33,736 nt of DNA from Nemertoderma westbladi (Eukaryota > Animalia > Xenacoelomorpha), in NCBI GenBank assembly GCA_032718475.1, contig JAUCBJ010007959.1, positions 1 to 33,736 of the forward strand, given 5' to 3'. Made by a program: the position numbers and the translations under genes. Shown here piece by piece: positions 1,431 to 26,790 of this stretch; positions within the stretch are counted from its first letter, which is position 1, and the number at the start of each line of letters is the position of its first letter. Below the pieces are notes generated by a model that made no database searches, had not been told where the DNA came from, and worked only from the letters and a program-made list of their open reading frames with translations.

Positions 1431-1703
1431 TTAGTTCGTTCCACCAGCCTTTGGGAACCACCTCAAGTCTTTCCCTTTGTCGTCCTCCTCCCTGGGTCGT
1501 TTCCTGGTCACTGCCGCTCCTCTGGTCTTGTCTACTTTCTGGCTTCGGACTCTCGCCGCCACCTCCTTACTGATCCCGGTCGTCGACTCCTTGGGTGCCG
1601 GTGTTATTAGCTCCCGGTATCGCTTCGCGGGTGGCCCCTCCGAGTGGCCCTGTTGTCTCCCCCTGGTGGCGTCCCATAGGATCATCTTCATTGCCCGCGG
1701 CAC
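1431..1703 (-). pseudogene. C-terminal 90 aa of the accessory exonuclease/zinc-knuckle ORF
   Basis: 73/90 aa identical by hand alignment to 17807-18079, with no gaps and the same stop position. Confidence 0.9.
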
Positions 1704-2171
1704 AGATATTATTTAGTTCTAATCTACCAGCCTGCCAGCTGACCAGTTAACGTTTTTATTTGACTTTTTTGTCCTCCTTTTTTTACGAATTGTGCATAAT
1801 GACTTTTGGTGTCCCTTTAATGACTTTTGTTGTCCTTTTAATGACTTTTTATGTATGTACATATTTCTTCAAACTGTCAGAGTCAGACTGCTGATTTCTG
1901 GACTGTCAGACAGTTGATTTCAACATGCCTATGCCAAAACATTCAAAATTTGTTGATTTCTGCTCTGTCGGACAGTTCGTTTCACTATGCCTGTGCCAAA
2001 ACATTTAAAATTCCATGATTTATAGAATATGAGCTAGATTTCCATATGCGCCTGTCTGCCTGTGGTAAAAAAAACTCTATAAATTTAATAGTTTGTGGTT
2101 GTTGTCGATAATCGATTACCACATGACGTAGCAAAACACTCATTTTATAGCCAAAAAACAATTACAAATTG

Positions 2172-4190: not shown

Positions 4191-5086
4191 CTCTGAACCA
4201 AGGTGGAACAAGTGTCAGATACCGTCAGATCAGATCAGATCAGATAAGGACAGACGTTTTAGCCATCCTATACAGAGGAGGGATTTTCTAACCAAAACAA
4301 TAAACAATCACTTTACCAAATGAAGGAAAGGAGCAGGTTACATAGATGGTCTTTTCTAACCAAAACAATAAACGATACATTACCCAGGATGGAATTCAAG
4401 CATGAGCGCGCAGGTACGCTTTGTTGCTTCGAGATCACCGCGCAACTGAAATTGGCTCGTCGCGCACCTCATCATAATCCACACAAAATCACGTAGCTCA
4501 TTCAGTCATGTCATGCATATCTCAAAAAAACGTACAGCTCATAAGAACAATCCTCATTCGCATTCCTTTTTTACAAGTTTGAGCGTTTCGTTCAAAGCTT
4601 TATCTTAGTATGTTGCATCTACATAATAAATTAAACAGTTAAATGCAGTTGAATCGACATAATAAATTAAACAGTTAAATGCAATCAATCAATCAATCAA
4701 TCAAAAAATTGTTAATATTAAAAAATATTTTTATAATCCACTACATTTGCATTTGAAAATACATTACTCTATAGTCTATACTGTATAAAATTTGAATAAA
4801 TATGCAATACTTCATTATCATTAGGTACCAACCAGCCAGCCAGTAATACTGTGTATAATAATTAGTCTTAACATACAGTTGGCTTATATAATGTGATAGG
4901 CTTAATTAAGTCATACTTACTACATTGTTATACAGAAGTATATTGTTAATACAGAAGTACCGGTGCCGGAACCGGTACTAAAATACCTGCTTTATACCTA
5001 CATCTGTACATACAATACAGCAATACTGGAAAATAGTGTACTACCGGTACTGATAGCCTGAGAGAACAGCAGTAGAGAAACCGGTA

Positions 5087-5659
5087 TGTTAGCGTATTCA
5101 ATTCCGCTAACCAGGCCCACACAGAGTTGGTTTTAAGCAATATTGGGAGCACGAGGTTGGTTACCAATCAACCTCGTGTCACCCCAATAAGCGGGGACAA
5201 TAGGCCCCAAGGGAACACACACAGCGGGGGTCAGAGGTTACACCTCCGGGAGGGAGAGAGAGACAGCAGCGGGGGGGAAGTACTCCCAGGGAGATGGGAG
5301 GGTGAGAAGTGAGTTACTAGCCAATGGGGGGAAGGCATCGGCTGAGTAGTGTAATGCGGCCAACCGGTGCAATATATTACCATTTCACTGTATCATTCAT
5401 TCACTCATTAGCTAGTCAGTTCAGTTAGGGTAGGACGGCAACTTTATTACCGTTCAGCCGTCTATTCATTCATGTTGTCTGTATACTGCAATTACTAACT
5501 GCATTCACTATAACTGTGCTTATACTTTATACTATTTTATATTATATACATACCGAGCGATTAACAATAGGAACTCTAATAAACTCTTTTCACACGGCGG
5601 GACGCGTAAATAAATCTAACCACCGGATAAACCGGGATCCTCTGTCTGATCCCGTCACA
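5087..5659 (+). repeat. LTR, variant A (573 bp)
   Basis: TGTTAGCG...GATCCCGTCACA. CCAAT (~5321), TATA-like (~5372) and AATAAA (5578-5583). Followed immediately by a PBS. Closer to LTR-C than to LTR-B in its 3' half. Confidence 0.88.
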
Positions 5660-5667
5660 TGGTAGCA
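5660..5667 (+). promoter_or_regulatory. Primer-binding site, probably tRNA-iMet
   Basis: TGGTAGCA directly after the LTR CA end, complementary to the 3' end of metazoan initiator tRNA-Met (...UGCUACCA). Only 8 nt match. Confidence 0.65.
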
Positions 5668-5687
5668 TGGAACCTAACTGTAAACCC

Positions 5688-5835
5688 ATCATACCCATAG
5701 AGAGCGGCCTGGAAAGCCGACTCCAAGAAAGAGGAGTCCACCCCACACCCGATAGTAGATCGGGTTCCAGCGGAATTGAAGCGCACTCGTAGATGATGCT
5801 ATCTTCTCACCGGGAAGATAGCATGGGGGGGGGAG
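5688..5835 (+). repeat. Duplicate of the element's 3' UTR end including hairpin and PPT
   Basis: Near-identical to 18646-18792 (3 substitutions, 1 G indel). Confidence 0.93.
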
Positions 5836-6446
5836 TGTGAGCGGATTCAATTCCGCTCCACCAACCCCATAAAGTTGGGAAGTGGCGTTTTAAGCAATAT
5901 TGGGGAGTACGAGGTTAATCACAATCAACCTCGTACCACCCCCAATAACAGGGACAACACACGGCCCCAAAGAGCCACACAAAAGAGGTTATAGGTCAAA
6001 CCTCTTGGAGAGGGAAAGTGACAGCAGCGGGGGGGGGGGGGGGGGGGGAAACACTCCCACAGAGGTGGGAGCCGAGAATTAGGTTATTGGCCAATCAGGG
6101 ACAAGGGAAAAGCATCCGCTAGGTAGCAAGGCCACAAGTAGAGTAGAGGTGAATATATATTACCGGTTAACGTTTGTGCCTCTTTCAGTTATCTCAGTCA
6201 CACAGTGGGGACCAGTGACATTTTTGTACCGTCACCGCCGTTACCGGTATCCTATTCAGTATTTGCAATCATAGCTTATATCATATTATTCCTTATCACT
6301 GTTCTGGACAACTGTGCTATTATATTCAGTTAACTATATTACCGTTTATATCAACATCAAAGGTAACAACAACAAACTATCTTTTCTCAATCGCGCGGTG
6401 ATGCGTAACACAAATCAACCGGTCGGGATCCTCTGATCCCATCACA
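5836..6446 (+). repeat. LTR, variant B, upstream copy
   Basis: TGTGA...TCACA termini. ~99% identical to 18793-19401 (5 substitutions plus poly-G length). Not followed by a PBS. Confidence 0.95.
6089..6190 (+). promoter_or_regulatory. Putative LTR Pol II promoter: CCAAT, TATA-like, initiator TCAGTT
   Basis: GGCCAATC (~6089), TATATAT (6154) and TCAGTT (6185-6190). The same order and similar spacing occur in LTR-A and LTR-C. Confidence 0.5.
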
Positions 6447-6537
6447 GTACAAAAATCACAAAGATTATTTTAGTACAAATATCTTGAATACCACTGCTAG
6501 AACTGTGACTGCCAGCCACCAGGGAAAAAGTTAAAAG

Positions 6538-9500
6538 ATGAGCGGAGAACCCCAAAATCTAGAGGGAGAGACGACACCGCCGCAGAACCCGGACGATACC
6601 AACGAAACGATCCGTGAGGCCGCAACGCGACGGTATCGACCCGCAATGCCGGACTCGCCGGAGAGAGACGATCCGGCAGCCCAAGCGGAGGGCGGCCGTC
6701 TACCAGGACGAGAGGATGAGTCGATGCACGATGGCGGTCGAAGTACCGATGTCGCCGGCCAGCCACAGGCCGAGGACGACGGACGGCCCACCGGAACGGC
6801 GACGGTGGGGCCGCCGGTACGACGCCGAACCAGGAGTGGAGGAGGAGAGATCGGCGACGAGGACGTCGGAATCAGTGACCGGCTCCGACGAGCCTACAAC
6901 GCGACGAAGAAACAGCTCAGGGAGGCCAGAGAGGGAGCAAAAGTAGACCAAGGGAAGTTGAACCAGCGACTAGGTGAGTCGAATAAACACTTTAGATACC
7001 TTGTTCGCTTTGGACAGGGAGAACTAGCCAGTGAGAGAGCGAGGGGGGTCGCCACCGAACTATTTGAACTGTGGCAGTCCAGGATAATGGAGCCCCAAGT
7101 AGTGTACATAGGGCCGTATTTAGTGGATGCTAGGGGAATTAAGTTAGTGAGTTGGGCAGACCCACACAAGGGCGAATCCGAGATTAACCCCGAGGATTCG
7201 GTCTCGTCGGTTAGCGAGAACCCCAGAAAGCGGGGGAAAGTTAGTAGGACAGAGAGGCGACGGGGGTCCATCGCGACCGACAAGTCCGCTACATCCTCCG
7301 CAAAAGCAAGAAGGGTGTTAGAAATAGATCTGGCGTGTCAATTAGACATGGTGGCGCTAGACCAGAAAGAGTTAGAGAGGCAGTTTGAAGAGGGAACTGC
7401 GTTGCTAGAAAGAGAGAGAGAGCTGGCGAGAGAGAATAAAGAGAGGGCTGAGAGGGTTGCGAGAAACTTTAGAGAGTGTGAGGAGATAGAAATGAGGGAA
7501 GGAAAGGAGCAAGAAGAGCGAGAAACGAATGAGGCGAAGGAGCGAGAAGAGCGAGAAACGAAAGAGGCGAAGTGAGGCTGGCTCGGGTAGTATCTACGAG
7601 GAGCTGGAAGTTATGGAAACGTTTGTTAATACCCCACTTACAGGGACCGGACGACAGACCCAAGACTGGTGTAACCGTACGGGCGGGGGGGGGGGGGGGG
7701 GGGGGGGTAATAACAATACATTAGAGGACGTTAATATTAATAGTACCATAGTTGATAACCCTAATCAAACTTTCATTGCAGGAAATAATATTTTGCCCGA
7801 TAATAGTAATTTAAATCCGAACGATCCTAATTTAAATAATAATCCAAATAATTCAAATAATCTAGATTTGAGTATACAAAATAATTCAAATAATTTAAAT
7901 TTAAATACGCAAAATAATCTAAATAATAATTTTAATTCAAACGATCAGAATAATCCCGATTCTAATTCAAATATACAGAATAATTTAAATAATAACCCGA
8001 ATTCAACACAGAATAATTCTAATAATTTAAATAATTTAGAAAATAATATTGATACTGGTGCTATTAATGTAAACGCGGCAGACGTAGGTGGTCCGACCAG
8101 CGAGAGCCTGGTAGGCCACATAGTTAGTATGCAGGGAGTAATGGGGGTGAGAGACCCCGAAGGGAGCCTGGTAGGCCACGTAGTTAGTGCGCAGGGAGTG
8201 GCGGAGTTGAGTCAACCCGACGGGAGCCTGCCAGGCAACGCAGTGATAGAGGGAAAGGCGGGGGTGAATAGACCCAGCTGCAGTAGAGTTAGTGCGTTGA
8301 CTAGAGAGGGGCGTAGAGGCGAAGTGAGAGACAGTGAAGTGATAGGTGGCGAGTGGGGGGGGGGGGGGAGGCTACAGGAGCCCCACAATGAGAGATTAGC
8401 GGCGAGAGGGGGGGGGGGGGGCAGAGAGTGTCCCACAGGCACCCAGTGATGGAGAATAGTAGGTGGATTACGAATATCCCCAGCGGCGTGCGACTGGGTA
8501 GAGAGAGAGAGAGGTTGGCGTTGCGAGAGGGCGAGCGACGACATGTCGAGCCCAGTCAGAAGAGGGAAGAAGAACAGTGGAGTTTAACCAGGAGGTCGAC
8601 GAGAGATCTCACGAGCGGGGACGCTACACTGCGACCTGGCGAGGTGTATTATACGCCGAGAGAGGGGTACAGGGCGTACCGGTACGAGGACGAGAATAAT
8701 AGAGGGGATCGAAGAGAACCTTCCCGACGGGATATAGCTGCCGATCGAGGATACGGTAATCGCGGGGAGGACTTCTTGGATTATTCGAGAAGGTTAAACT
8801 TCGGTCCGGAGGGACACATACAGACTGCTGGACATACTGTAGGCCTTACTGCACATACTATAGGCCATGCTGGGAGAGATAATGTAGGCGATAGGGCAGC
8901 GCGGACGACGGGATTAAACCCGGAAGTCGCGGAGTACATACCGGTAGGTAGGCCAGAAGTGGATAGGCCTATACCGGTACCAGCACAACAGTATGACTAT
9001 AGCATGCAGGGACATAACATATATCCAGGGGAGGGGAGAGTTATTGCGGATAGGTGTATGGGCCCCAATATATTAACATCAACCCCAGTACCAAACATAC
9101 CGGTGGGGGGGGGGGGGGCAGGGTGACATTCCCCCATCACAATATCAACAATATACTCAAACAGGGATAAGAACATCGAACCCCCTGGACGAGAACAGAT
9201 CCTGTGACACAGAAATATGGAGGGGGCCATTACCCCCAATGATATATCCGACGCAAAGGAGGGCAACAGACAGGACGAGCGGACCGCACCCAACGGGAGA
9301 ATCTGTACAGCTTCCATCGAACCCATTGGAAGCACAGGCGATGGGAATGGCTACATTAATCGATGCACTGAAGCCCAGAATCGAGTTACCACCTGTAGAA
9401 CCATTTAAATTCGATGGAAGTAGGCCAGAAGAATACCTGCAATTTCGGCGCATGTACAGCAATGAGATATTGACTAAGAACCTGACGCAGGCGGAGTGCC

Positions 9501-10400
9501 TAAAATATCTACAGTTATATACAGGGGGCCCAGCGTATGACATTGTAAGGCAGTACCAGGGCATCGAGGGTGGCTTCACGACAGCATGGCGGGCGCTAGA
9601 CAGGGAGTACGGGCACCCGGCCAAGATCATCCGGCAGACCCTAAAAGGTATAACATCGGGTGGCCTACAGGATAACCCCATTAGCATAAAGACGTTTGCG
9701 AACAAAGTCGAGAAGGCGCTAATCGTGTTGAAGACGTTAGACGCGCCATATGAACTCAACGCATCTAATAACATCACCACGATAGCGCAGGCACTGCCAA
9801 TCTGGCTGCGCAATAAATGGAGGAAAATCGCTTTCTCCACCAGGGAGAAGAAGGGTGCGGAACCGGGCCTAGAAGAAATGTCGAGCTTCCTCAACTACGA
9901 AGCCGAATTGATCACAGACCCAGTCTATAGCGAGGATAGTCTGGGAAAGGGGCCAAAGACCGAATACAATAGGCCGAAACCAGAACACAACACGGCGAAC
10001 GCATTGCCAAAGCTCCGGCAATCGCTGCCATACTTGGCGACGCAGGGGACTGCTAGTCCACATGTAGCCGGGGGTAGGGCCACACCATGGAGCGGACAGG
10101 GGCAAAATAACAATACAAACAAACACAACCCCAACACGCCCAGTAGGCCGAAAACAAACAATAAGAATAATAGGGATCTAGGTACGAACGCAAGTGCGAT
10201 ACGCAGCGCACTATATAAGGATGGCTATAACCCAAACAACAAATGCCAATTACACATGAATGCACTTCATCAGACCATGAACTGCAGATATTGGCAAGCA
10301 CTGCCAAGAGAAGATCAGATAGAATACGCGAGGAGGAGCGAAGTCTGTCCTCGATTTGTGACGGGTGGACATAGAGCTAACCAATGCAAGGAAACACCAA
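6538..10400 (+). pseudogene. gag: Gag region of BEL/Pao polyprotein (frameshifted)
   Basis: ATG 6538. Consecutive ORFs 6538-7575, 7529-8449, 8428-9126 and 9239-. Coiled coil, Asn-rich tract, BEL capsid-like PFKFDG...YLQFRRMY...CLKYLQLYTGGPA...AWRALDREYG, and degenerate Cys/His knuckles (CQLH..H..C, CPRF..H..C). Two shifts lie at poly-G runs. Confidence 0.85.
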
Positions 10401-13400
10401 TTAAGTTCGGTCAAGGCAAAGGACAGACAATGGCGAAAAGCACCGTAGGGGCGAAGAAGAGAGGAACGGTACTACTCGGGGTAGTACCAGTGAGGTTGAT
10501 CGGAGAAGGCGATCGATCAGTAACCACGCTGATGCTGGTCAACAGTGGAGCAGCCTTCACATTGGTCGAAGATTGGGTGGCCGAAGAGATAGGACTAAAG
10601 ACAAGGCCAAGTAGAATGGCGGTAACAACGAGGTCCTGGAGATGATGACCGGACGGTGCGGGATAGCAGCGATAGCACCGGGATGCGATTATGGGGCGAC
10701 GATCGACCCCATCCAGGTGATAGAATCGATAAATATCAACGTCAGGCGACCAACCAACATCGAGGTCGAACAATATAGATTCCTGGACAGTATCGACTTC
10801 TCAATACCAGAGGTGGACGTTAGTAAGGTATCCATTATAGTAGGAATGGACTGCCCGACGGCCCACGAGAGAATGCAGACGGTCTTCGGCGAGGACAGAC
10901 AGTGTGACCCGGTGGCAATTTTAACACCATTCGGGTGGATGCTAAGTGGCCCAATTAGAACCAAGATACAGTTTAGGATGTCGGAGACATCAGGGTGCAT
11001 GTTCGCGGGAACTATGAGGGAGATGGAAGATGAAGGAGCGGAGGAGCAGCTCAGGAGACTGCTTAGGCAGGATTTTGAGGGATTGAAAGAGACCGGGGTC
11101 GGAACCTCGGTAGAGGATAAACAGGCAATACAAAGTGTAAAGGAGTCGAGGAGATGCGACGAGGGGCGGTACACCATAGGAATGGTATGGAAACAGCCAA
11201 AATTACCGCTACTGGACAACAAGGGAATGGTACTCACGAGGCTTCGTAAATTGAAGCAAACGCTAAAACGGAGCCCCGAAAAGAATGAGTACATTCATAG
11301 AACGATAAGAAAGTATGTCGAGAAAGGATGGGCCGTGGAGTTACCGGTCGACGAACCGAACACGGATAGGACCTATTACCTGCCACTTCACGTGGCTCTA
11401 GACCCAAAGAAAGGTAAACTGCGGATGGTAGTTGACGCATCGGCTAAGACCAACGGCAAGTGCCTAAATGACTATCTGCTGGAGGGTCCCAATATTTATG
11501 ACTCAGGAATCGAGGTCCTACTGAGATTCAGAAACGGGAGGCACGCCTTCACTTGCAACATCGAAGGCATGTTCAACCAAGTCCGTGTGACAGAGGAGGA
11601 TAGTGACAGCCAGCGCTTCCTATGGTACAACGGCGACGAGGAACCGTCGACAATACCGGTGTACAAGATGGTGGTGCAGAATATTGGGGCCAAGTCGTCC
11701 TCATTTACGACGACTGTGGCTGTGAGGGATATAGTAGAGGGGAAAGAGGATAAATATAGCGCCAAAGCCGTCGATATGATTCGACACGGCTTCTATGTAG
11801 ACGACGGAATGGAGTCTGGAAACACGGTTAAAGAACTACTGGATACAGGGTGCGAGGTTCGCGACATCCTGAAGGGATCCGGGTTTAACCTGACCAAGTT
11901 CCAATCCAGCTCAGAAGAGTTTATGAAAGCCATAGAGGACAGGAGGCCAGAGTCGACCATGGATAATCTCACGACAGCCAAGGGACAGGACATGGCGAAT
12001 AAGAGGGTAGAGTCCCAGCAGAAGGCATTAGGGATCATGTGGAACCGAGAGACAGACGAGTTCAAGTACCAGCTGAGCCAGGAGGGCGCGGATATCCACA
12101 CAAAGAGGGGCTATGTGTCGTACATATCAAGGATATACGATCCCCTAGGCCTAGCATCCCCACTATTAGTCACGGGGAAACAGATACATAAGAAAGTATA
12201 TAAGCTAAAGGACGAATGGGATACAGAGGTCCCTGAAGAGATCAGCAAGCAATGGAGCAAGTGGACGGAGAGTTTAGAATGGATGGGGACATACAGCATG
12301 CCACGCGTATATTTTCCGGATGGGGACATGACGGATCTGGATCTACACATGTTCTCCGATGCGTCATTGGAAGCATACGGAGCGGCACTCTACCTAGTAC
12401 AATGAGAATGGACTCATAAGCCCAGACTTGCATTCAGCAAAGCAAAGTCGACGCCGCCAGATTCAGCATCAGTCCCGAAACTCGAGTTGATAGCTGCTAG
12501 ATTAGGAGTAAGGGCCACAGCCTACTTGATGGATACTATTCCCAACATAGTGGAAACACACTACTGGACGGAGTCCATGGTAGTGCTTGGATGGCTACAT
12601 AATGAGAAGACGAGATACCCTATTTTCGTTGCAAATAGGGTGGACGAAATAAGAGCGACAACTGAGTTGGAAAGGTGGCACTACTGCCCAACGGATGAGA
12701 ACCCAGTGGACTTGTTATCGAGGGGCGTGGCACGCCACACTTTCTTGAAGAAGGAAGTATTGTGGCAGCATGGGCCACAATTCCTGAACGATAAAACGGC
12801 CTGGCCACCGATGAAGAAGGTGGACCCGGGCTCAGAGGAAGTAGCACTAGAGGAAGAGGGAGGAGACTCAGAAGGTGAAGAGATATATAGTCAAATGGCG
12901 AGGGAGATCAGGGAGGTGCAACCAAAATCAGAAGAACCATGCGATAACCCTATGGATAAACTCCTCAGCTACAGCTCAAGTTGGTACAAGACCAAGAAGT
13001 TGGTGGCGTATTGGAGAGCCTTCGGGGATTTCCTCAAGGGAATTGGCAGGGACGCCAAGAGGAAACCAAACATCGATCTGGAGGGAGCGGCGAGGGCCGT
13101 GATTTGCTACGAACAGAAAAGGTACTACGGCGACGGAGTGCAGCGCGTCAGTAAACAACAACATCTTCATCAGGACAGCGAGCTCATCATGCTGTCGCCA
13201 CAACTCAATAACGATGGGATCCTAGTAATGAACTCTAGAGTGCTAAGTAACAACAGCCTCATTATCCCACCGAAACCCATCATCATCCCAAATAGATCGC
13301 CGATAGTACACCAGATCATTTGGGACTCCCACAAGTCGATATTGCACGGGGGCACCAACCAGACCCTCACGGAGATACGGAGGACCTTCTGGTTCACACA

Positions 13401-14439
13401 GCTAAGAAAGAAGGTGAAGGCGGTAGTGGGGCAGTGCCAGACCTGCCGACGGACGAGGAAGGAGCGGGCCGTACAGGAGATGGCGCCATTACCGGCCAGC
13501 AGGGTGAGACAGCACGACCCGCCATTCACGCACTGCGGTGTAGATATGTTCGGGCCGATAAAGATCAGGGTGATGCGGCACACGGAGAAGCGCTATGGCA
13601 TCATCTTCGTATGTAACAACACGTGGGCAGTAGGAATAGAACTCGCCCAAGACGCAACCGCATCGGCATTCATCAATGCCCTAGAGAGGTTCAGAGACCG
13701 CAAAGGTGGGACGATCGCAGTGATATACTCCGATAATGGAACCAACTTTGTGGGGGCGGAGAACGAGCTGGCAGAGGCCTTGGACATCCTGGAAGGAGAG
13801 GAAGTCAGGGCAGCCATGAGAAGACGACAGGTGAAGTGGGAGAGGAGGACGCCATATGCTCCGCATACTTTACGATGCGTCGAGAGACTCGTGGGTAGTT
13901 CCAATCGTCTGATGACGAAGTTGATGAACACCCACATGGCGACAGAGGATGTACTAAGGACGGTACTAGCAAAATGCGAGGGTATCATTAATAGCAGACC
14001 GCTATACCCAGAAAATGATGACCCAGAATCATTAGATGTGCTGACACCCAGTCACTTTCTAATGGAGAGGCCAGCGACCATCGACATGCGGGGTGTAGAT
14101 CCAGACGACATACACTCCCGACAGAGTTGGAAAGTCGCTAAGGCGATAAGCGCATAGTATTGGAGGAGGTGGGTTGAGGAATACCTACCCACGCTACATA
14201 GGAGGAGCATGTGGAGAAATACCACTAGGGAGTTGGAGAAGGGTGATTTGGTGATCGTCACGGACTACACCATTATCAACAATCAGTGTCGATTAGCAAG
14301 AGTCGTGGAAACTTACTCCGACAAGGACGGAAGAGTCCGATCGGTGGAAGTGTGGATAGGGGGTAAGATAGGGGCGAAAGATAGGAAGACCTACAGGAGG
14401 GCTGTACGGAAGTGTTGCCTATTAGAGGGCGCACCTTAG
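10401..14439 (+). pseudogene. pol: Pol of BEL/Pao: protease, RT, RNase H, integrase
   Basis: PR LV[N]SGA. RT YYLPLH, LRMVVDASAK, CLND, YVDD (11794). RNase H LHMFSDAS..AYGA, VPKLEL. IN H-H..CQTC, GVDMFGP, YSDNGTNFVG, ERLV and C-terminal RRWVEEYL...DGRVRSVEV. Frameshift ~10640, in-frame stops at 12403 and 14155, final stop 14439. Confidence 0.95.
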
Positions 14440-14599
14440 TGTTTAGTCGTCCAAATGTTGGACTGATGGGGGTGGGATTGAGGGCGAGACGCCCTTCCCA
14501 CACAAAACATAAAAAAAAAAAAAAATAAATAAATAATAGAGAAAGAGAGTAACAGAAAGGAAAGTAATAGTACATAGTAGGTACGTAGTAAGTAAGTAG

Positions 14600-15120
14600 G
14601 CAGATAGAAGTTAGTTAGAGAGTTAGTAAGAGTAGTAAGAGGGTACGTAGTACCATTAGTTAGAGAGTTAGTAAGAGTAGTAATAGGGTACGTAGTACCG
14701 TTAGTAAGAGTTAGTGGAGTTAGTTAGTAAGAGGTTACGTAGTACCATTAGTAAGAGTTAGTGGAGTTAGTTAGTAAGAGGGTACGTAGTATCGTTAGTA
14801 AGAGTTAGTGGAGTTAGTTAGTAAGAGGGTACGTAGTACCATTAGTAAGAGTTAGTGGAGTTAGTTAGTAAGAGGGTACGTAGTACCGTTAGTAAGAGTT
14901 AGTGGAGTTAGTTAGTAAGAGGGTACGTAGTACCATTAGTAAGAGTTAGTGGAGTTAGTTAGTAAGAGGGTATGTAGTACCATTAGTAGAAGAGTTAGTA
15001 AGAGGGTACATGTAGTACCGCTAGTAGAAGAGTTAATGAAAGGGTACGTGTAGTACCGTTAGTAGAAGAATTAGTAAGAGTTAGTGTGCTAGTAAAAGCT
15101 AGTAGAGTTAGTAGTGAGTA
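14600..15120 (+). repeat. 47-bp tandem array between pol and accessory ORF
   Basis: Unit GTTAGTAAGAGGGTACGTAGTACCATTAGTAAGAGTTAGTGGAGTTA. The TACGTAGT motif recurs at 14736, 14783, 14830, 14877, 14924 (variant at 14971), with degenerate units on both flanks. Confidence 0.95.
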
Positions 15121-15512
15121 GTGAGAGGGGGGCACGTGGGTACAGCAGGACATATCGTGTAGGCCACACGAGACATACTACTGTACTGCACAGCCCATAG
15201 AGTAGGCCAGAATATGAATTAAAATAATAAATAATCCATTAATAGATACTAATAGCACAGTTGTAGGATTAAAATAAATATTAAAATCAAAAATTAAACA
15301 AATTATGGTAACAGTAGGCAGGATATTCTAGAACATAATTAAAGTAACTGACAAAATTAGGGAATTTACGAAATTTGGCACTTTAGGAAATAAAAGTAGG
15401 AAAATTCGGCAATAACCTAGCGTTCAGAGAGAGATAGGCCATTATCGGACCGTACAGACCATCCTAACTACATCACTCACTTATATTGTGCCTTGGTAAG
15501 GTACCACCTTAG

Positions 15513-16511
15513 GTGAGCGATCGGGAGAGTTCGAAAAAGGCGGAGAAACTTGTTAGAAAGAGAAAGGCGGAGTTGGGAGGAAAGGAGATACTGGTGGATT
15601 TCACCGAAAGGCATCCGGAAGAGAAGACGAGGGGATACTACGAGCGGTTGGAGAAGGGTCACAAAGCGCGAGCACTCCAGGACCATTTCAGGGAGGTGCA
15701 CGAGAAGCGGCTGGTTGGGACCTACGGGACACCGACGCTAGACAACGCAATCTTCGAGCATTTCCACTACGTGGTAAAAGGAGACGAGGCGAAGTTCGGG
15801 ATACCGAAGTATCCAAAGGAACCACCGAAAAAGGACTGGAAGAGGTTCGTAGAGTCCGTCAGCTGGGGAGGGTACATGGTCCTAGACGACGAGGGGACCG
15901 TGGAAGACGAGGAAGGTTCGAGAAGAGTGTCGGCGGGGTTGGCCAGAACCGTACTCCTGCATTTGGCCGCGCCAAATGGGGATATATTCATGTTCGATCT
16001 GGGGACGTATGGGAAGAAGAACGGGCCAAAGTTTAACCGGTTGCCAAGGGCGGTGCAGAGCCTAGTAAGAGAGAAGTCAACGATAAAGGTGGGATCGGTG
16101 ATCCGCGACGATGCGGAGAGAATCATCGGTCCGGAGACCCCCAACCTCCTGGACATGCAAACGGTCTACATGGCTATGACAGCACCAGCCGGGTTGGGAC
16201 TAGTAGAGAACACGGACCATTGTGGAGCGGTGGCGATGGGCCAGCTAATGGGGCTCGTATGCCACAAACCAATGGACTGGGGTAAATTCAGGGAGGAGTA
16301 CGGAGCGGAGTTGGCGAACTCGCTGAAGTGGGGAGCGAGACTGGGGAAGCAAGAGGTGTATCAATTCCGGAGAGGGGCGATAAAGATATATCAGAAGCGA
16401 TATATCCTGCAGGAGGACTGGATAATGATAGGTTTGCTAAACCTATTCATGACCGAGGTTATCGAAAGAGAACCAACAGCATTTCTGCTATCGGGATCAC
16501 CCCTGAACTAG
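15513..16511 (+). CDS. Accessory ORF, part 1: DEDDy-type 3'-5' exonuclease domain (WRN/EXD/Mut-7/RNase D-like)
   Basis: ExoI YMVLDDEG (D 15885, E 15891); RTVLLHLAAPNGDIFMFDL; LPRAVQSLVREKSTIKVGSVIRDD (ExoII D 16110); LLDMQ; QLMGLVCHK; ExoIII-like YQKRYILQED (Y 16401). All in the canonical order. No ATG before the domain. Confidence 0.78.
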   Translation: MSDRESSKKAEKLVRKRKAELGGKEILVDFTERHPEEKTRGYYERLEKGHKARALQDHFREVHEKRLVGTYGTPTLDNAIFEHFHYVVKGDEAKFGIPKYPKEPPKKDWKRFVESVSWGGYMVLDDEGTVEDEEGSRRVSAGLARTVLLHLAAPNGDIFMFDLGTYGKKNGPKFNRLPRAVQSLVREKSTIKVGSVIRDDAERIIGPETPNLLDMQTVYMAMTAPAGLGLVENTDHCGAVAMGQLMGLVCHKPMDWGKFREEYGAELANSLKWGARLGKQEVYQFRRGAIKIYQKRYILQEDWIMIGLLNLFMTEVIEREPTAFLLSGSPLN

Positions 16512-18079
16512 AGAAGAGCCTTCAAAGTGGCTTTCGAGGGTCTGGTAGACCACCCGGGGCTGAAGGGCGAGTCGATATACTATAACTGCCGATATCTAGT
16601 AGACAGGGAGGTGGCTACACCATATCAAAGGTGGGAGCAGCTAGAGGCGGATAGACGAGAGGCGAAGCGATTGGAAGAAATCGCTAGATGAGAAAGGAGG
16701 AAGGCAGAAGAAAGGGAGGCGGATGCTAGAGGAGAGGGCTACTTGTTCGAGGAACAGGAGGCCTTGGACGATCTACACTGGACATCAGGGGCGAGAATTG
16801 GGGTAGATGGTAGGATCAGCGAAACAGTCGACATTGGGATGGCAGACGACGCCCATACCAGCGGGTGCCGAGGGCGATTTCGCAGAGAGAAGGCCAGGGG
16901 AACTGGAAGGATGGAGAGTCACGGGCGAGAGCCAAGGTGGGAAGGGACACAGTGGGTCCACCGGGTAACCGGGTTTGGAGCCACTCCCAGAGGAGGACGA
17001 GGATGATGACGAGTTCGGAGAGATGCCACCCATCGGGAGAATCGGCCACTCAGACACGGACTGGGTTGGCGGGAGAGTGGTGACGGCCAGCGGGGCGAGG
17101 GCCTTCTGGGATAGACCCGGCAAGCGGGCCTGGGTGCATGAGGAACCGGCAATGGATTTCACGGGGAGCACCATCAGGTTGGGCGAGCAACCGGGATCGG
17201 CACCACGGGTAGTATTCGGAGACGACGATGCCCAGGCGAGACGAGGAGATAGACATGGACAGGGACGCTAACGTCCAGAAGTTCGCTTACCAGCGACTCC
17301 ATAGACCGAGGAGATCACTTGGGACGAAAGACGACGTGGGGCGGGAGGCATTGGTACTCGGCTGCGATTACTGCGGGAGGCAAACTCACCAGGTAAGGAG
17401 CTGCTTGTACCGATTCCAAAGTGGGACGAGCTGCCTCTACTGCCGCGAGTCGAGTCATAGGATGGGGGCGTGTCCATGGTTGCACAAGTGTTCTAAGTGC
17501 AACTTCCGGGGGCACTACGGACGCCAGTGCGACTGGATGGACGATGAGGAGAAGTTTAAGATCTTCGAGGAGTGGGCCGATGTCGGCGCCATGACGCCGC
17601 AGCGGATGAAGGCCCAGGAATTCCGGTGGGGCTTCTTTAATATTAACCAGGAGGCCCACCTGGAAATCATCAAACGGAGACTTCCATTCACTTATCAGGA
17701 AGTGTCAACGGCGGCGACGTATGCCAGAGTGATAAATACACAGAGGTATTTAGATAGGTGGACGCCAGAGAACCGGGGAGAGTTCAGAGATTTCTTGGCG
17801 GAGCATGTGCCTCGGGCCATGAAGGTGATCCTATGGGACGCCACTAGGGGGAAGCAACAGGGCCATTCGGAGGGGCCACCCGCGAAGCGATACCTGGAGC
17901 TAATAACACCAGCACCCAAGGAGTCCACGGCGGGAATCAGCAGGGAAGTGACGGCAAGGATCAGGAACCTTAAAGGGGACAAGAACAAGGGAGCGGCGAC
18001 GACCAGGAAGCGACCGAGAGAGGAGGACGACAGAGGGAAGGAATTGAGATGGTTCCCAAAATCAGGAGGAGCGAACTAG
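16512..18079 (+). pseudogene. Accessory ORF, part 2: coiled-coil/acidic linker, 3x CCHC knuckles, basic tail
   Basis: Frame continues past TAG 16509 and TGA 16689, then two frameshifts (into ORFs 16975 and 17228). Three CX2CX4HX4C motifs at 17363-17530, plus PPAKRY and TRKRPR. Confidence 0.8.
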
Positions 18080-18782
18080 AACTTGGAGAGGGAGATGTGG
18101 GGATGCCTGGAAGGCACCACATGTGAAGTAATACGAACTCCTAAGTGCAAATTTAATTAAAAGTGCAATTAGTATGTACGTATGTAATAATCATTAGAAT
18201 AGAATATAATCATATAGCCAATATAACCAAAGTAAGTACTATAGTCATCTAACCTTTTTCCAATTAGCTACTGGGACTGGGGGCCAATTGACTATGACAG
18301 GAGGACGGGAGACTAGACGTAGCACTACACACTTGACACTTCTTAAGTGCGACGGCACAGAAGGGGAGGGTGAGGCTCGTCAGGAGTGAATGGGTTAAAG
18401 GTAGACAAGGGTTGAGTATAGAACGCGTGGAGATTGCGATGTGGAGAGGCGAGTGCAATTCAAGTGTGGGGGGGGGGGGGGGAGGAGTAAGAGACAGAAT
18501 GAGGGATGAAGAGGTCCGAGAATTAGAGTCAGTTAGAGTGGAGTGGGGATAAAATTGTGTGAGAGAAATCCACAATTGTCTCGAACCGAGATGCCAGATG
18601 TCTTGGTGCAACATAAGTGAAGTTGCACCAAGAGAGGGTAGTAATATCATACCCATAGGGAGCGGCCTGGAAAGCCGACTCCAAGAAAGAGGAGTCCACC
18701 CCACACCCGATAGTAGATCGGGTTCCAGCAGAATTGAAGCGCACTCGTAGGTGATGCTATCTTCTCACCGGGAAGATAGCAT

Positions 18783-18792
18783 GGGGGGGGAG
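18783..18792 (+). promoter_or_regulatory. Polypurine tract
   Basis: GGGGGGGGAG abutting the LTR TG. Confidence 0.9.
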
Positions 18793-19401
18793 TGTGAGCG
18801 GATTCAATTCCGCTCCACCAACCCCATAAAGTTGGGAAGTGGCGTTTTAAGCAATATTGGGGAGTACGAGGTTAATCACAATCAACCTCGTACCACCCCC
18901 AATAACAGGGACAACACACGGCCCCAAAGACCCACACAAAAGAGGTTATAGGTCAAACCTCTTGGAGAGGGAAAGTGACAGCAGCGGGGGGGGGGGGGGG
19001 GGGGAACACTCCCACAGAGGTGGGAGCCGAGAATTAGGTTATTGGCCAATCAGGGACAAGGGAAAAGCATCCGCTAGGTAGCAAGGCCTCAAGTAGAGTA
19101 GAGGTGAATATATATTACCGGTTAACGTTTGTGCCTCTTTCAGTTATCTCAGTCACACAGTGGGGACCAGTGACATTTTTGTACCGTCACCGCCGTTACC
19201 GGTATCCTATTCAGTATTTGCAATCATAGCTTATATCATATTATTCCTTATCACTGTTCTGGACAACTGTGCTATTATATTCAGTTAACTATATTACCGT
19301 TTATATCAACATCAAAGGTAACAACAACAAACTATCTTTTCTCAATCGCGTGGTGACGCGTAACACAAATCAACCGGTCGGGATCCTCTGATCCCGTCAC
19401 A
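18793..19401 (+). repeat. 3' LTR, variant B (609 bp)
   Basis: TGTGA...TCACA, preceded by the PPT. Direct repeat of 5836-6446. Confidence 0.95.
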
Positions 19402-20078: not shown

Positions 20079-21440
20079 TTGAGATATGGAGTATTAATTT
20101 CAAAGCCAGCTGCCATTCTGTGAGAGTTACACATATGCTACACGAAGACCCCACGCAAATTCAACTTGGAAAATTTCTAAACTTTTGCCAGACTACATAT
20201 GTACCAAGTTTGGATATATTTTATCGAAATTTGGCTGAGTTATTAACGTTTAAAATTGGACACAACAGATCGACAGAACAACAGAGCAACAGTACAACAG
20301 ACACACCGATTGAGTTAGTGGTACCTGTATGCTAAGCTCGCTTACTTTCGTCGCTCGCCCCACAACTACCCTAGTTTCTATTACAGTACTTTGGTTTAGT
20401 GCTTCTATCTGTAGTGATGAATTCTGCGTTAGACGTGTGGGGCGATAGCCATGCAGCCATGTAAGTCCAGTTGGGCCTTAGCCTGTTAGCGTAGGTATGT
20501 AGTTAGTGCACACATCCGTTGTCGCCGTCGTCGTTGGAAACGTTTGAACGCTAATAAGTCAGTCAATCTCTTGAATGAAATGGAACCAAACTTGATACAT
20601 GTATTTTATTACAATTAGTGACAATATTCAACTGGATGTTTCCATCCAACTAGAGGTTGAACATCTACGTCGAGTTAATTTAATACCAGAATTAAAAATC
20701 GCAACACATAAGTCGTTGAACAATTTAATAAAGAAATTAATAGCTTTCCATATTTTCTAAACAAAATGAAACCGTCTGTCTACTCATGTATACTGGATCA
20801 TCGTTATAGAAAACTTAACACCAACCTTAGGAGGCAACGAGAGAAAGCCGCCCCAATATTAGATTATTACAACAACATATCCATTGAGTAAGAAAGTGGA
20901 GAAGAGCCTGGCCCGTCTCTTAATTTTTTACTTTATATTACGCGATCAATTTTCACTCATCTCGTCATGAACCCAACATGTATGTGACCTTTTGTTAAAT
21001 TTGTTGGCTATGCGTTTGCGGCTGTTTGGGCGGGGTATGGTAGGCCTACACTTTTCACACTTAAATATTTTGGTTGTGAAATGTTACAGGGCATAGCTAT
21101 CTGAGATATTTCATTTATATTTTATTATGCGAGGAAGAAGAACATACAACGTTATTTACTATATATGTAACAAAATAATTGTTTTCGGGTTTAACTTGGA
21201 ATCCTCCCCAAATAGTTGATATACAATTATATTTAAAATTATTTCCATGGTCATGGTCATTCACCCGTCTTTAGTTAGAGATTTGTTTGCATGAAAGACA
21301 GTTTAGTTTAGTTTTTACTGATTTATTATCTCTGATCTGACTGGGGTAATAATAAAGGATAGGATAAATGGAAGCAAAGTGTGACAGTAACAATTATTTC
21401 CCCGTCACCCTGCATGTCTTAAGTATATGATATATCAAAT

Positions 21441-23830
21441 GGGGAAGTTTGGATTCACTGCATAAATGCAGTTCACCAAACTTCCCCCGAATGCACACTG
21501 TAACTTCCCCCTTCCCACAAATATCCACTGTTGAATTAATTTGAAGCGATATAATAAGTACAAAATTGTGCGAGTTTTTAATTGTGTGGTCCAATTGTTA
21601 TTTGATTACTATTTATTATTTAAAGTGCATTTAATATCACACTGGTTTTTAGAATATTATACTATACAACCTTATGTTTTATTAATTTACCCAATCGAAG
21701 CCTCATAAGGGCCGGTTATTTGTACGCATATCCCCTAATGCGCTCAGTAAGGTTCAAACAACATATTAATATGAAAATAAAGTATCTGCAAAGAAAAGAA
21801 CCCAATACTTTATAATTTGACCTTATTAAAAAATTTGCACTTTTGCACACTTATTTGTACAAATTCACTTTAGCAGATCGTAATGGTGGCTCTTATTTAA
21901 CAAACTTATGTTTATCCTCTACCGATCTACGATGGTGTATGATCAAGTGTCAGTCGCTAAAAGTGTCAAAAATCCAATTTAATAAATCTGGATTTGCGAT
22001 TTTGGACCATATTCATGGACATTTTTAAGTCACTTTATAGACATAAAAAGTTAAACAAATGTTACGATTATAGTTAGAAATCATTCCAAACTACATTTTA
22101 ATCCAAAAAATAACATTCTACGATGAATAGAATTGGAAATAACAGTGTTTGAAGTATCGAAAAAATGTTCACTATTTAAGTGCATTTTGCACTAAGTGCA
22201 CATAAGTCTTTTCCCAAGTTGTATCCTATTTCACACACTACAATCTATCCTCTATCCAATGAAAAAAGTTTCAGATTAAACGGCCCTGTAGAACCGAAGT
22301 TATTTATGTTTAAAAATAGTCACTCGAAAATTTCAAATTCTCTTGGTCACATAGTCTAGTGGTTATCAATCACGTTAATGAAACCTAAGTTCGCGGGTTC
22401 GAAATCCAATATTGACCTGACCATTCTTAATTTTTTTGCAAAAAAAATTATTTTAATTTTTTCACTAAAATCGCTCTAACTTCGGTTCTGGTGGTCCAAA
22501 TTCAATAAAATTGGTATATTGTTTGCCGTAATTTTTTTCTTAATCTTTTGAGAAGGGGTTATTTTCGGCCCCAAAAAAATTAAAAAAAGGGCCAAAATAA
22601 CGCGATATTTTTCGACCCTTAAAATTCGTAATTTTAATTATATATGTTAAGATAAAAGATAGCGGAGTTAATTTGATACTTTTTACAGGTACTTTTGGCG
22701 CAATACGCTAAATTATAATGGAATAGCGATTTGTTAAAAAAAAAAATTTTTCGTCCCTTTTTATAAATATTATATTTCACACGATCGCCTGCCGCTCCAG
22801 TTTTATAATACCTCCGGCGCTGTGATTAACGCTGTTAGATAGATAATTTAACTCACTATAAGTCTGTGTAAACAAATCTCCCGTAAGTTAAGTAGTTTTC
22901 GAGCTAGACGATTTCCCGCGAAGCAAGTTTGAGGCGCGAAATTATAATTTTGGCCCTCATTTTTTTAATATCATCCTTGGAGCAAAACCGATAGCATATC
23001 TGAATTCCCCGTATGGATATTGACTGTATAGAATGTACCTTAACCAACTAAAGTTAAAAATAAAAAATTATTCGATAAAAACTACTTTACAAATTCTGGC
23101 TCTTTTTGGCCCCTATTGCCGACATATTTTTTGTACCCCCATTCGATAGGAACGTGGCCCCAATGGTCTTCTACGAGTTTCATAAAAGAATTAGTGGATT
23201 CCTACCCGCGTTGTCGAATAAACATTTCGGAAATAAGTTTTCCAAAAAAGACGGACAAAAACGCACAAATTTACAGCCCCTTTTTCCACCCGAAATTTTA
23301 ATAAATATCTTACCCCCATTCGATACGAAGGTAGTACCACTCTTCCCCTTTCCAACCGCGTTACTTTCGTCCCCGTACGATTAATATTAGCCGAGTTATA
23401 GCGGATCCCGCAAAGTCATTTTGTCCGTTTTTTCAACTTTGACGGACATTTTCGGAAAAAAGGCGTGGTAATCTTTTTTGAAAAAAAAAACGAATTCACT
23501 AATTAATCCCTTCTATCGTATCCCGGCGTCGGCTAAGCAATAACCTAGGGTTTTTTCGAGCCACTGTAGAGCGCCTTTCAAAAAAATTTTAAAATTGTCG
23601 AAAAAATGACGGTTTTTTGTCCGCCGTGTCCGTCGAAGGGTTAGATTTAATAATGTTAGAGTTGCTAATATCTTAGAATTCCGAGCCGCTCCCTTGGTGA
23701 GAAAATAAAAAAATTTGGTCAGTTCCTTCATCGAAAAGTCCCCCAGAATCCCAAGTTAACCTATATAGTTAGCGATGGCCTGCGGCTTTAGGAGCGGCCG
23801 CGGTATTCACCTCCCTCATAGCGGCCGCGG
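21441..23830. mobile_element. ~2.4-kb non-coding interspersed repeat, copy 1 (probable non-autonomous DNA element)
   Basis: 21441-23448 aligns with 24448-26422. Starts with a long palindrome and ends in a GC stem-loop. Class not determined. Confidence 0.7.
22345..22417 (+). other. 73-bp tRNA-like module inside repeat copy 1 (copy 2: 25321-25393)
   Basis: GGTCA...TGACC ends, A box TAGTCTAGTGG, B-box-like GGTTCGAAATCC. Confidence 0.55.
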
Positions 23831-24447
23831 CGGTGTTGCGTCAAATGGAGAAATATTTATCCCACCAAGGTGGGCCCCTCAATATAGATATACTTAAAGA
23901 AAGACCACGAGGTAAAGGGAAAAGCGTGGAGGGGGGGGGGGAGGGGGGGGGGGGGGGTATAGGTTGAATGACACTCGTTAATTTTATATTACTCGAAATT
24001 TTATGTAATATATTTTCGCTCCCAGTGTTCACTTGTTCTATATACCGGTGACCCATTAATATTAATATATTCTACTCAGTCGTTAGTACGTATGATACGA
24101 AATCTGTAAGTTATAGTCACCGAAACATTTCAGCTCTGAAATTATAATACGTGAATCGAGGCTGTTTCTGTTACGATCTACATATAATAGATATGGTTAT
24201 TGATACTGTTACATTGTGATAATAGATTCTAGGTTTCTTTTACTGGTAAATCCGTATAAAAGTTGAAGTAATAAAATTTAATTACAGAACCATAGTTCGA
24301 AGATCAGCATTTTTCATACCAGTCATTGCTTAGAAATTTTACAGGATAATATTGTTAATCTGACTTAAGTTGTTTAGGTTGAACAAAGTCTACATAGTAA
24401 ACAACAGGTCCTCCAAAGAGTGTGTCTTTGGTATATTATATCATGAA

Positions 24448-26790
24448 GGGGGAAGTTAGATTCACTGCATAAATGCAGTTTATCTAACTTCCCCCAAATA
24501 TCTACTGTTGAATAAAATTGAAGCAATATATTAAGTCCGAAGAGGTGCGAGTTTTTTAATAAATTGTGTGGTCCATTTGTTATCTGATCTCTATTTATTG
24601 TTTAAAGTTCATTTAAGATCACACTGGTTTTTAGAATATTACAACCTTATTTATTATTAATTTATACAATTGAACCCTTATAAGGACCGGTTATTTGTAC
24701 AGATACTCCTAATGCTCTCAGTAAGGTCCAAACAACATATTAATATGAAAATAAACTATCTGCAACGAAAAGAACCCAATAATACACCATTTGACCTTAT
24801 TAAAAAAAATTGCACATTTGCACACATATTTGCACAAGTGCACTTTAGCGGATCCTAAAGGTGGTTCCTATTTAACACACTTATGTCTATTCTCTACCGA
24901 TCTACGATGGTGCATGATCAATTGTCAGTTGCTAAAAGTGTCAAAAATCCAATTTAATAAATCGCGACATTTGCGATTTTGGACCATATTCATGGACATT
25001 TTAAGTCTCTTTATAGACATAAAAAGATAAACAAATGTAAAGATTATAGTTAGAAATCATTCCAAACTACATTTTAACCCAAAAAATAACATTCTAGGAT
25101 GTATAGAACTTGACATAATAGTGTTTGAAATATCGAAAAAATGTGCACTATTTAAGTGCAATTTGAACTATGTGCACATGCGTCTTTTCCCAAGTTGTAT
25201 CCTATTTCACACACTACAATCTATCCTCTATCCAATGAAAAAAGATTCAGATCAAACGGCCCAATAGAACCGAAGTTATTGATGTTTAAAAATAGTCACT
25301 CGAAAATTTCAAATTATATTGTTCACGTAGTCTAGTGGTTATCAATCATGTTAATGAAACCTAAGTTCGTGGGTACGAAATCCAATATTGACCATTCTTA
25401 TTTTTTTGTAAAAAAATTTTTTTTTATTTTTTCACTAAAATCGCTCTAACTTCGGTTCTGATGGTCCAAATTCAATAAAATTGGTATATTCTTTGCCGTA
25501 ATTTTTTTTTCTATCTTTTAAGAGGGGGTCATTTTTGGCCCCAAAAAAAAATGAAAAAAAGGGCCAAAATTACGCGACATTTTTCGACCCTTAAAATTCG
25601 TAATTTTAATTATAAATGTTAAGAAAAAAGATAGCGGAGGTAATTTGCTACAATTTAAAAATACTTTTGGCGCAATACGCTAAATTATAATGGATTAGCG
25701 ATTTTAAGAAAAAAAATTTTTTTTTCGTCCCTTTTATAAATATTTTATTTCACACGATTGTCTGCCGCTCCAGTTGTATAATAGCTACGGCGTTGTAACT
25801 AACGCTGAAAGATAGATAATTTAACGCTCTATAATAATGTTTAAATACGTTTCCCAGACGTTGAGTAGTTTTCGAGCTAGACGTGTTCCCGCGCAGCGAG
25901 TTTGAAACGCGAAATTTTAATATTGGCCCTCATTTTTTTAATAGCGTCCGCGGAGCAAAACCGATAGCATATTTGAATTCCCCGTATCGATATTGACCAT
26001 ATAAAATGTACCTTAACCAACTAAAGTGAAAAATAAAAAATTATTCGATAAAAACTATTTTTCATATTCTGGCCCTTTTTGGCCCCTATTGTCAACATAT
26101 TTTTTGTACCCCCACTCGATAGGAACGTAGCCCCAATGGTCTTCTACGAGTTTCAAAAAAGAATTAGTGGAATCCTACCCGCGTTGTCAAATTAAACATT
26201 TCGGAAATAAAATTCCGAAAAAAGACGGACAAAAACGTCAAAATTTACGGCCCCTTTTTCCACCCGAAATTTTATTAAATCTCTTACCCCCATTCGATAC
26301 GAAGGTAGTACCACTCATCCCCTTTCCAACCGCGTTACTTTCGTCCCCGTACGATTACTATTAGCCGAGTTATAGCGGATTCCGCAAAGTCATTTTGTCC
26401 GTTTTTTCAACTTTGACGGACAATAGACGGAAAACAAGCCCGGAGGCGGGGTATTCCAAGATGTGGAAACGTCTAATTTAGACCCCCTCTTTCGATTCTC
26501 GGTGTCTCTGGATGCGTCAAATAGAGGTTTTTTAAGAGTCCTAGTGAAAAAAAGACAAAAAAACCAGACAATTGTCCGTCATGTCCGTCAAAACGATAGA
26601 TTCGCTAAAAGCTCTGAAGAATCTTATTTTTTTGGCATTACGCGTCCCCCCTCGAAAAATCAAGAAAATCGTACCTCTGGAAATAGGTCGAATGGGGGGG
26701 GAACACCGTTTTCGCAGTAACTACGCGTCCTCTATGTAGACTGCGTCCTTTGGAGGGGCGGCGAATTCACCTCACTCGACGCCGCCCTTA
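24448..26790. mobile_element. ~2.3-kb non-coding interspersed repeat, copy 2
   Basis: Direct, diverged copy of 21441-23830. Confidence 0.7.

Follow-up and report, generated by a model that had tools for sequence, protein, structure and literature searches.

A probable DEDDy-type exonuclease and zinc knuckle accessory gene in a BEL/Pao retrotransposon of Nemertoderma westbladi

The third gene of a BEL/Pao long terminal repeat (LTR) retrotransposon from the xenacoelomorph Nemertoderma westbladi, here called ORF3 (open reading frame 3), is a real and conserved gene, probably for an accessory protein that joins a DEDDy-type 3′–5′ exonuclease domain to zinc knuckles. The element is 13.7 kb long and lies on the plus strand of the stretch we analysed (contig JAUCBJ010007959.1, positions 1 to 33,736, of assembly GCA_032718475.1; hereafter the window, 33,736 nucleotides). 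Its LTR pair encloses gag, pol and ORF3. ORF3 occupies 15513–18079 in the sense direction (plus strand), between the pol stop near 14440 and the 3′ LTR; it starts ∼1 kb past the pol stop, from which it is separated by an AT-rich spacer and a 47-bp array. A preliminary description, made from the sequence alone, had reported an interrupted sense frame of ∼850 codons inside the LTRs and downstream of integrase, and this was borne out. We count ∼853 codons, the sum of three frame pieces whose borders are approximate, broken in this focal copy by three stop codons (16509–16511, 16689–16691 and 16966–16968) and by two frameshifts, near 16790 and near 17220.

Reading from its 5′ end, ORF3 comprises a charged N-terminal region, open and without an ATG (15513–15760), a DEDDy-like 3′–5′ exonuclease domain (15760–16480), a charged stretch with an acidic, glycine-rich linker (16600–17330), in which two of the stops and both frameshifts fall, three zinc knuckles of the form CX2CX4HX4C (17363–17530) and a C-terminal region (17540–18079). 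The last of these, 179 residues long, matches no known family, and its final 90 codons are under purifying selection (see below). It also carries two basic motifs resembling nuclear localization signals (NLS), PPAKR and RKRPR (18005–18019), which were read by eye and are both kept in the sister copy described below. The preliminary description had placed a charged coiled coil before the knuckles; by composition, this is only a charged stretch (55% E/K/R/D over 40 residues). It had also seen neither a signal peptide nor a membrane segment. The second point holds, since no membrane segment was found in ORF3 (best 19-residue hydropathy mean 1.05); the first was judged without a predictor.

All three exonuclease motifs quoted in the preliminary description are where it had put them. 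ExoI, LDDEG (15885–15893), has its D at 15885–15887 and its E at 15891–15893; ExoII, KVGSVIRDD, has its aligned D at 16110–16112; and ExoIII, QKRYILQED (16401–16418), has Y at 16401–16403, E at 16413–16415 and D at 16416–16418. The D-x-E of ExoI follows a hydrophobic strand as expected, although taken alone it is no better than chance, and a D/E pair seven residues further on offers an alternative register. The ExoII Asp stands in the K(V/I)G-x4-D context, for which the score of 17.1 bits was reached by none of 1000 shuffles and by one of 491 decoys.

Directed tests, with profiles made from bacterial PF01612 members and with pieces of BEL/Pao polyproteins as decoys, support the earlier placing of this domain in the WRN/RNase D/EXD group. 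Three profiles with a large share of WRN-like proteins (the WRN-like and the mixed bacterial DEDDy ones) gave P values of 2e-4 to 6e-4; their scores were beaten by one or two of 2000 shuffles and by none of 484 decoys, and ORF3 ranked first among the 72 ORFs of the window. Of the eight HMMER profiles used, the three that reached significance were made once WRN-like sequences had been seen to fit best. A score for five ordered DEDDy blocks came to 40.6 bits for ORF3, compared with a mean of 0.9 (standard deviation 4.6, maximum 22.7) for shuffles, none of 1000 reaching it, and a maximum of 17.7 for decoys (0/484); true DEDDy members scored 68–154, in sample. The gap limits of this score had been fixed after the query was seen, and the test was hence repeated with gaps that were loose and uniform, and with blocks left out. 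With the loose gaps, or with any non-central block removed, the ORF3 score was matched by 0/1000 shuffles and 0/491 decoys in six settings. Without the central block it was reached by 7/1000 shuffles and 3/491 decoys, and the three blocks outside the HMMER hit, scored alone, by 2/1000 and 3/491. Among single blocks, only the central one (0/1000) and, marginally, ExoIII (29/1000) exceeded chance. When given enough upstream sequence, MAFFT placed the D, E, K, D and Y of ORF3 on columns that are invariant in 61 sequences, and the strand–helix–strand context before ExoI fits the DEDDy fold, both in the alignment and in the guided model described below. A register with ExoI seven residues later, obtained with a shorter query, was dropped, since the helix and strand preceding ExoI are lost in it.

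A number of results weigh against this assignment. No hit to the exonuclease part came from undirected searches of Pfam, NCBIfam and PHROGs, of PDB sequences, of 1.84 billion representatives or of metagenome contigs, nor from two homologue searches. The first five profiles (NrnC, RNase D, Pol I exonuclease, two WRN-like, and all 60 sequences together) reached P 0.026 at best, and those for NrnC and RNase D did not score on ORF3 at all. With hhalign, local P values of 3e-4 to 0.015 came with low probabilities (3–39%); one of four global runs put all three Exo motifs in register and the other three degenerated. ExoIII itself reads Y-x3-E, with an Asp one place later, instead of the canonical Y-x3-D, as the preliminary description had already remarked. 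AlphaFold failed on the single sequence, with a predicted local distance difference test (pLDDT) value of 31. Guided by a DEDDy alignment, it gave a pLDDT of 71 (86–93 in the core blocks) and a predicted template modelling score of 0.70, and the guided model matched Nibbler, Pol I exonuclease, RNase D, WRN, Egalitarian, Trypanosoma brucei RNase D (TbRND) and EXD1 at tied Z scores of 13.5–15.2, with Nibbler the best (Z 15.2, root mean square deviation 3.4, 196 aligned). Because the DEDDy alignment imposed the fold, however, these matches are circular and show compatibility only. A DEDD-fold match had been named in the preliminary description as the test of its reading; Pfam, PDB, homologue searches and the unguided fold did not provide one, and the directed tests alone did. 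PF01612 specifically did not match ORF3 at E 1 or at E 10, and tblastn of the exonuclease part against phages and plasmids gave no credible match. Three phage or plasmid matches at E 1–10 were rejected as candidates, as was a PDB-sequence match to a viral VP4 at E 0.6.

On balance, we consider it highly probable that the N-terminal domain of ORF3 has the DEDDy fold. Its membership of the WRN/RNase D/EXD group is supported by the sequence comparisons above, and we call it DEDDy-like rather than a canonical member because ExoIII has Glu where the family has Asp. We lean towards the domain being an active enzyme despite the Glu that replaces the last Asp.

The three CCHC knuckles that had been described downstream are confirmed as exact CX2CX4HX4C units (17363–17404, 17432–17473 and 17489–17530), ∼300 codons from the exonuclease. 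Only three of 5000 shuffles of this piece contained even one knuckle. Their best matches are retroviral nucleocapsid, Lin28 and TbRND (E 0.04–0.3), and metagenome contigs searched with the knuckle part were blank. An origin of the knuckles by copying from gag of the same element was considered and rejected, the best blastp match having an E of 0.56.

ORF3 is a real, family-level gene of a large, high-copy family. The preliminary description had made its reading depend on the presence of the frame in other family members, and contigs assembled from four public runs (three studies, one organism) supply this: 11,880, 6,632, 6,649 and 85 contigs match 14100–18700, covering 29–30 of 30 bins, and three of the four runs hold thousands of diverged family fragments. 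Copies were compared on 15860–17310 in contigs from three runs (two studies). Each of the stop codons of ORF3 is replaced by another codon in 82–100% of contig depth in all three runs, and at the second frameshift an indel is present in 3/3, 4/4 and 5/5 of the contigs counted. Thus, most of the breaks in ORF3 are private to the focal copy. Two observations count on the other side: cover is low and contig ends are loose around the first frameshift near 16790, and no contig bridges the exonuclease and the knuckles, the longest piece listed being 712 bases. It is nonetheless quite likely, judging from short contigs, that the ORF3 of the family is one continuous frame. Peaks of contig depth near the motifs were not counted as evidence, because the parts of a gene cannot be ranked by such depth.

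The pattern of sequence change supports purifying selection on ORF3. A 3′ fragment of a sister element lies on the minus strand of the window (136–1704) and comprises the last 90 codons of ORF3, the 3′ region and the LTR. It is truncated inside ORF3; the 90 codons are 81% identical at the amino acid level and end at the same stop position, and its 3′ untranslated region and LTR align to 18064–19401 at 67%. Over these 90 codons, nonsynonymous divergence (dN) is 0.096 and synonymous divergence (dS) 0.59, giving a dN/dS of 0.16 (bootstrap 0.08–0.34), and 27 of the 45 differences fall at third positions, a pattern not seen in the shifted frames. The contigs provide a further comparison, with 83 variant places at a share of at least 50%; 40 of these are listed, and four at stop codons were left out of the codon-position test. 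Differences shared with other copies were separated from near-private ones at a share of <97%, a threshold picked afterwards. Eleven of the 16 shared differences are at third positions (p 0.004), including seven of ten in the exonuclease half, compared with seven of the 20 near-private differences of the focal copy (Fisher p 0.046, near-private versus shared). Because the shared differences favour third positions and the near-private ones do not, the pattern as read from these codons is that of a selected gene decaying after insertion.

Juno and Vesta, two lineages of LTR retrotransposons found in bdelloid rotifers, are gypsy-like. DEDDy ORF3s have been described in both, as well as in Athena/Terminon elements (Rodriguez, Kenefick and Arkhipova 2017; PMC5408684), where the same guesses at function are made; a high novelty of ORF3 is therefore not supported. 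The likeness is close: a non-env third ORF after pol in an LTR element, an RNase D/WRN-type DEDDy domain, no transmembrane segment and one catalytic Asp changed to Glu. The bdelloid ORFs, as that paper presents them, lack a coiled coil or membrane segment and carry the motif DEED in place of DEDD. In ORF3, by contrast, ExoII keeps its Asp and it is ExoIII, the fourth position, that has Glu, so that the DEED motif is not reproduced. The carrier is BEL/Pao and not one of the rotifer gypsy-like lineages, and ORF3 is much longer, at ∼850 codons, and has three CCHC knuckles and basic motifs, whereas for the bdelloid ORF3s that paper gives only a Cys-His-Cys motif, in two families.

Among cellular proteins, the arrangement most like that of ORF3 is found in TbRND (PDB 7c42 and 7c45), which, according to PMC7797062, has a DEDDy exonuclease followed by several CCHC fingers and acts on the 3′ ends of small RNAs. 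It has the highest identity among the Foldseek rows listed (17–19%) and gives a weak match to the knuckles (E 0.3). TbRND is, however, a cellular enzyme with four fingers directly after the nuclease (same paper), whereas the three of ORF3 lie ∼300 codons downstream. Nibbler/Mut-7, EXD2, WRN-exo, EXD1 and Egalitarian belong to the same fold class, as far as the tied top matches of the guided model can indicate (Z 13.5–15.2). With WRN-like proteins ORF3 shares the KVG-x4-D context of ExoII and the Q-x2-Y spacing of ExoIII. Identity to the proteins of this fold group is nevertheless only 9–16%, with insertions after ExoI and before ExoIII, and no donor subfamily can be named. Among retrotransposons, the env-carrying Belpaoviridae (Cer13, Atlas and Tas; PMC9094657, PMC8742986) also have a third coding region between integrase and the 3′ LTR, but there it encodes a membrane fusion glycoprotein, in contrast to ORF3 with its lack of a membrane segment; the focal element also exceeds the 4.2–10 kb stated for Belpaoviridae.

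The ICTV profile of that family lists gag, pol and env only. The word exonuclease is absent from the main texts of PMC3118150, PMC9094657, PMC554778, PMC13524379 and PMC12440569 and is used once in PMC11662393, for LINE (long interspersed nuclear element) endonucleases; the reviews PMC6431247, PMC6338049 and PMC5718144, in the parts available, repeat only the bdelloid case. No BEL/Pao exonuclease ORF or knuckle fusion was found in the literature searched, which did not extend to most subscription papers, the primary Cer papers, supplements, Repbase or GyDB, any of which could contain an earlier account; nor were the RNase D-like domains that the preliminary description had mentioned, with doubt, for some nematode Cer elements confirmed there. 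Within that literature, then, an exonuclease ORF3 as such is already published, and its occurrence on a BEL/Pao carrier, its fusion to knuckles and the evidence for selection appear not to be.

As to its role, the product of ORF3 would be a 3′–5′ exoribonuclease of the DEDDy fold, linked to three zinc knuckles of the CCHC type. Upstream of 15876, a position within ExoI, the frame has no ATG, and for this reason the protein might, with roughly an even chance, be translated from a message of its own, probably a spliced one as for env. Splicing of the env type is possible: inspection of the sequence finds a candidate acceptor at 15465–15512 (plus strand), with a branch-like CTAAC/CTCAC and an AG directly before the open frame, which is tied second to fifth by pyrimidine content among the YAG sites in 14400–15900. 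By analogy, single-stranded RNA would be bound at the knuckles and its 3′ end passed to the nuclease, and the knuckles would raise RNA binding and cleavage as in the trypanosome enzyme, in which the CCHC domain enhances both the binding of RNA and the cutting of guide RNAs at the 3′ end (PMC7797062). The probability that ORF3 is a functional RNA-directed DEDDy-knuckle accessory nuclease seems to us about evenly balanced. Its most likely activity would be to trim or destroy host small silencing RNAs. The order in which we rank the functions, with host small RNA first and replication intermediates and an inactive adaptor next, draws on the established functions of the fold. A target among host small RNAs rather than among the element's replication intermediates is favoured among the rivals, at somewhat under an even chance, while counter-silencing considered by itself is a tentative and rather doubtful proposal. 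The same caution attaches to the fullest version, in which a nuclear, knuckle-guided exoribonuclease, captured independently of the bdelloid cases, would degrade host piRNAs or siRNAs and so help to explain the high copy number; we regard it as possible and on the unlikely side. Counting against the reading as a functional accessory nuclease, the bdelloid extra ORFs had neither a clear link to copy number nor a significant departure from neutrality (PMC5408684). ORF3 differs from them in being under purifying selection.

An active nuclease could instead serve the replication of the element, its knuckles loading it onto element RNA for packaging, where it would proofread the reverse transcriptase (RT) or trim the tRNA primer, the 3′ ends of RNA or cDNA ends that are untemplated. 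We think this rather unlikely. The knuckles do have the retroviral CX2CX4HX4C spacing and match nucleocapsid best (E 0.04), DEDDy enzymes act on single-stranded DNA as well as RNA, the strongest sequence signal is to WRN-like profiles, and 3′-end processing was among the proposals for the bdelloid ORFs (PMC5408684). ORF3, however, stands as a gene by itself, 1 kb past the pol stop, and is not a Pol domain, none of the 120 BEL/Pao polyproteins listed has a DEDDy-like stretch, so that the Pol of relatives manages without a fused one, and the conserved NLS-like motifs suggest a job outside the cytoplasmic particle. Because of these three points, a role on host or element RNA outside the particle is favoured. 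A further alternative is a catalytically weak or dead RNA-binding adaptor of the EXD1, Egalitarian or Maelstrom type that protects, exports or transports element RNA, to which we attach a similarly low likelihood. The change of the ExoIII Asp to Glu and the weak score of ExoI point this way, the piRNA pathway has in EXD1 and Maelstrom two DEDD derivatives without activity (PMC5408684), and the fold matches obtained with the guided model include Egalitarian (Z 13.9) and EXD1 (Z 13.5). On the other hand, all four positions have acidic residues, the ExoIII Tyr is kept and, as a weak argument, no catalytic codon is among the 40 listed of the 83 variant places.

The remaining alternative is that the N-terminal part is not DEDDy at all, its motifs being a chance resemblance, or that exonuclease and knuckles belong to two separate genes. 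The blank undirected searches, the lack of significance of single blocks other than the central one, and the lack of a contig joining the two halves are all consistent with it. We nevertheless judge it quite improbable: the ordered five-block score lies far beyond both nulls under several gap settings, the strand–helix–strand before ExoI fits, and the linker shows third-position bias in the expected frame, with stops that other copies do not share.

Turning to the carrier, its identification as BEL/Pao in the preliminary description is upheld by the LTR pair around gag and pol, by the order protease, RT, RNase H, then integrase, with DUF1759, Peptidase_A17 and YVDD, and by a polypurine tract; PMC554778 describes the same pol features (domain order, Pao-type domains and YVDD) for BEL/Pao. 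The 5′ LTR, as a shared repeat (5688–6446, plus strand), is 98.55% identical to 18646–19401 over 759 columns, with eight mismatches and three gap positions, and its outer 5′ edge is uncertain. The 3′ LTR (18646–19401, plus strand) ends in CACA and is preceded by the polypurine-tract-like AAGAGAGGG (18630–18638, plus strand); its start may be earlier than the shared repeat, given that the whole of 18064–19401 aligns to the sister element. No target-site duplication was found in the flanks, inspected by eye. The gag and protease region (6535–10645, plus strand) is frameshifted in this copy (DUF1759, E 8e-11; Asp_protease_2, E 0.007), and of the triple Cys-His boxes typical of BEL/Pao Gag two degenerate ones are recognizable in the decayed copy and the third was not seen. 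The pol gene (10615–14440, plus strand) encodes RT, RNase H with the Pao peptidase A17 domain (PF05380, E 8e-28) and integrase (Integrase_H2C2, E 1e-11), with YVDD in RT at 11794; it is interrupted by stops at 12403–12405 and 14155–14157. With a query spanning RNase H to integrase, 320 relatives were obtained at E 1e-20. Those listed, 120 in number, are all BEL/Pao polyproteins with PF05380, those named being from animals, and because they are only 28–34% identical the focal element is, by sequence, a divergent BEL/Pao lineage.

The spacer between pol and ORF3 contains the 47-bp tandem array (14633–14999, plus strand, 7.8 copies). Together with a 38-bp array it forms a purine-rich tract at 14633–15080, which differs in length among contigs and could be a regulatory or packaging element. 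The N-terminus of gag (6535–9100) is very long and of low complexity and contains a charged repeat, a stretch rich in asparagine, and repeats of 33 and 60 bp; its G runs coincide with frame changes and may reflect assembly errors or slippage. By eye, no TGG of a primer-binding site was seen directly after 6446. Because a neighbouring related LTR (5087–5659) is followed by TGG and the focal one is not, the focal copy may be rearranged just after its 5′ LTR. That LTR is 71% identical to the minus-strand sister LTR and ∼76% to part of the focal LTRs, and is followed by the primer-binding-site-like TGGTAGCATGG (together 5087–5680), immediately ahead of the focal 5′ LTR; members of the family have probably inserted into one another or recombined here.

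Elsewhere in the window, perfect 32-base inverted repeats at 2341–2372 and 4230–4261, 1.9 kb apart and accompanied by 68-bp subterminal repeats, are possibly the ends of a non-autonomous DNA transposon. An AT-rich direct duplication of 2 kb (21415–23448 and 24423–26422) is 87.6% identical between its copies, and a fragment of a non-LTR (LINE-type) reverse transcriptase at 31263–32311 on the minus strand was recognized by eye from its translation.

If ORF3 is what it appears to be, the capture of exonucleases by LTR retrotransposons extends from the rotifer lineages to BEL/Pao, and the BEL/Pao case suggests that one enzyme class has been recruited to the env position more than once, by convergence. 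To the published bdelloid case ORF3 would add purifying selection and a module for RNA binding of which a cellular analogue, TbRND, has been solved, and the question of what exonuclease ORF3s do could be put to a concrete protein. Should the target prove to be host small RNA, this would be a rare case of an animal transposon using an enzyme for counter-defence.

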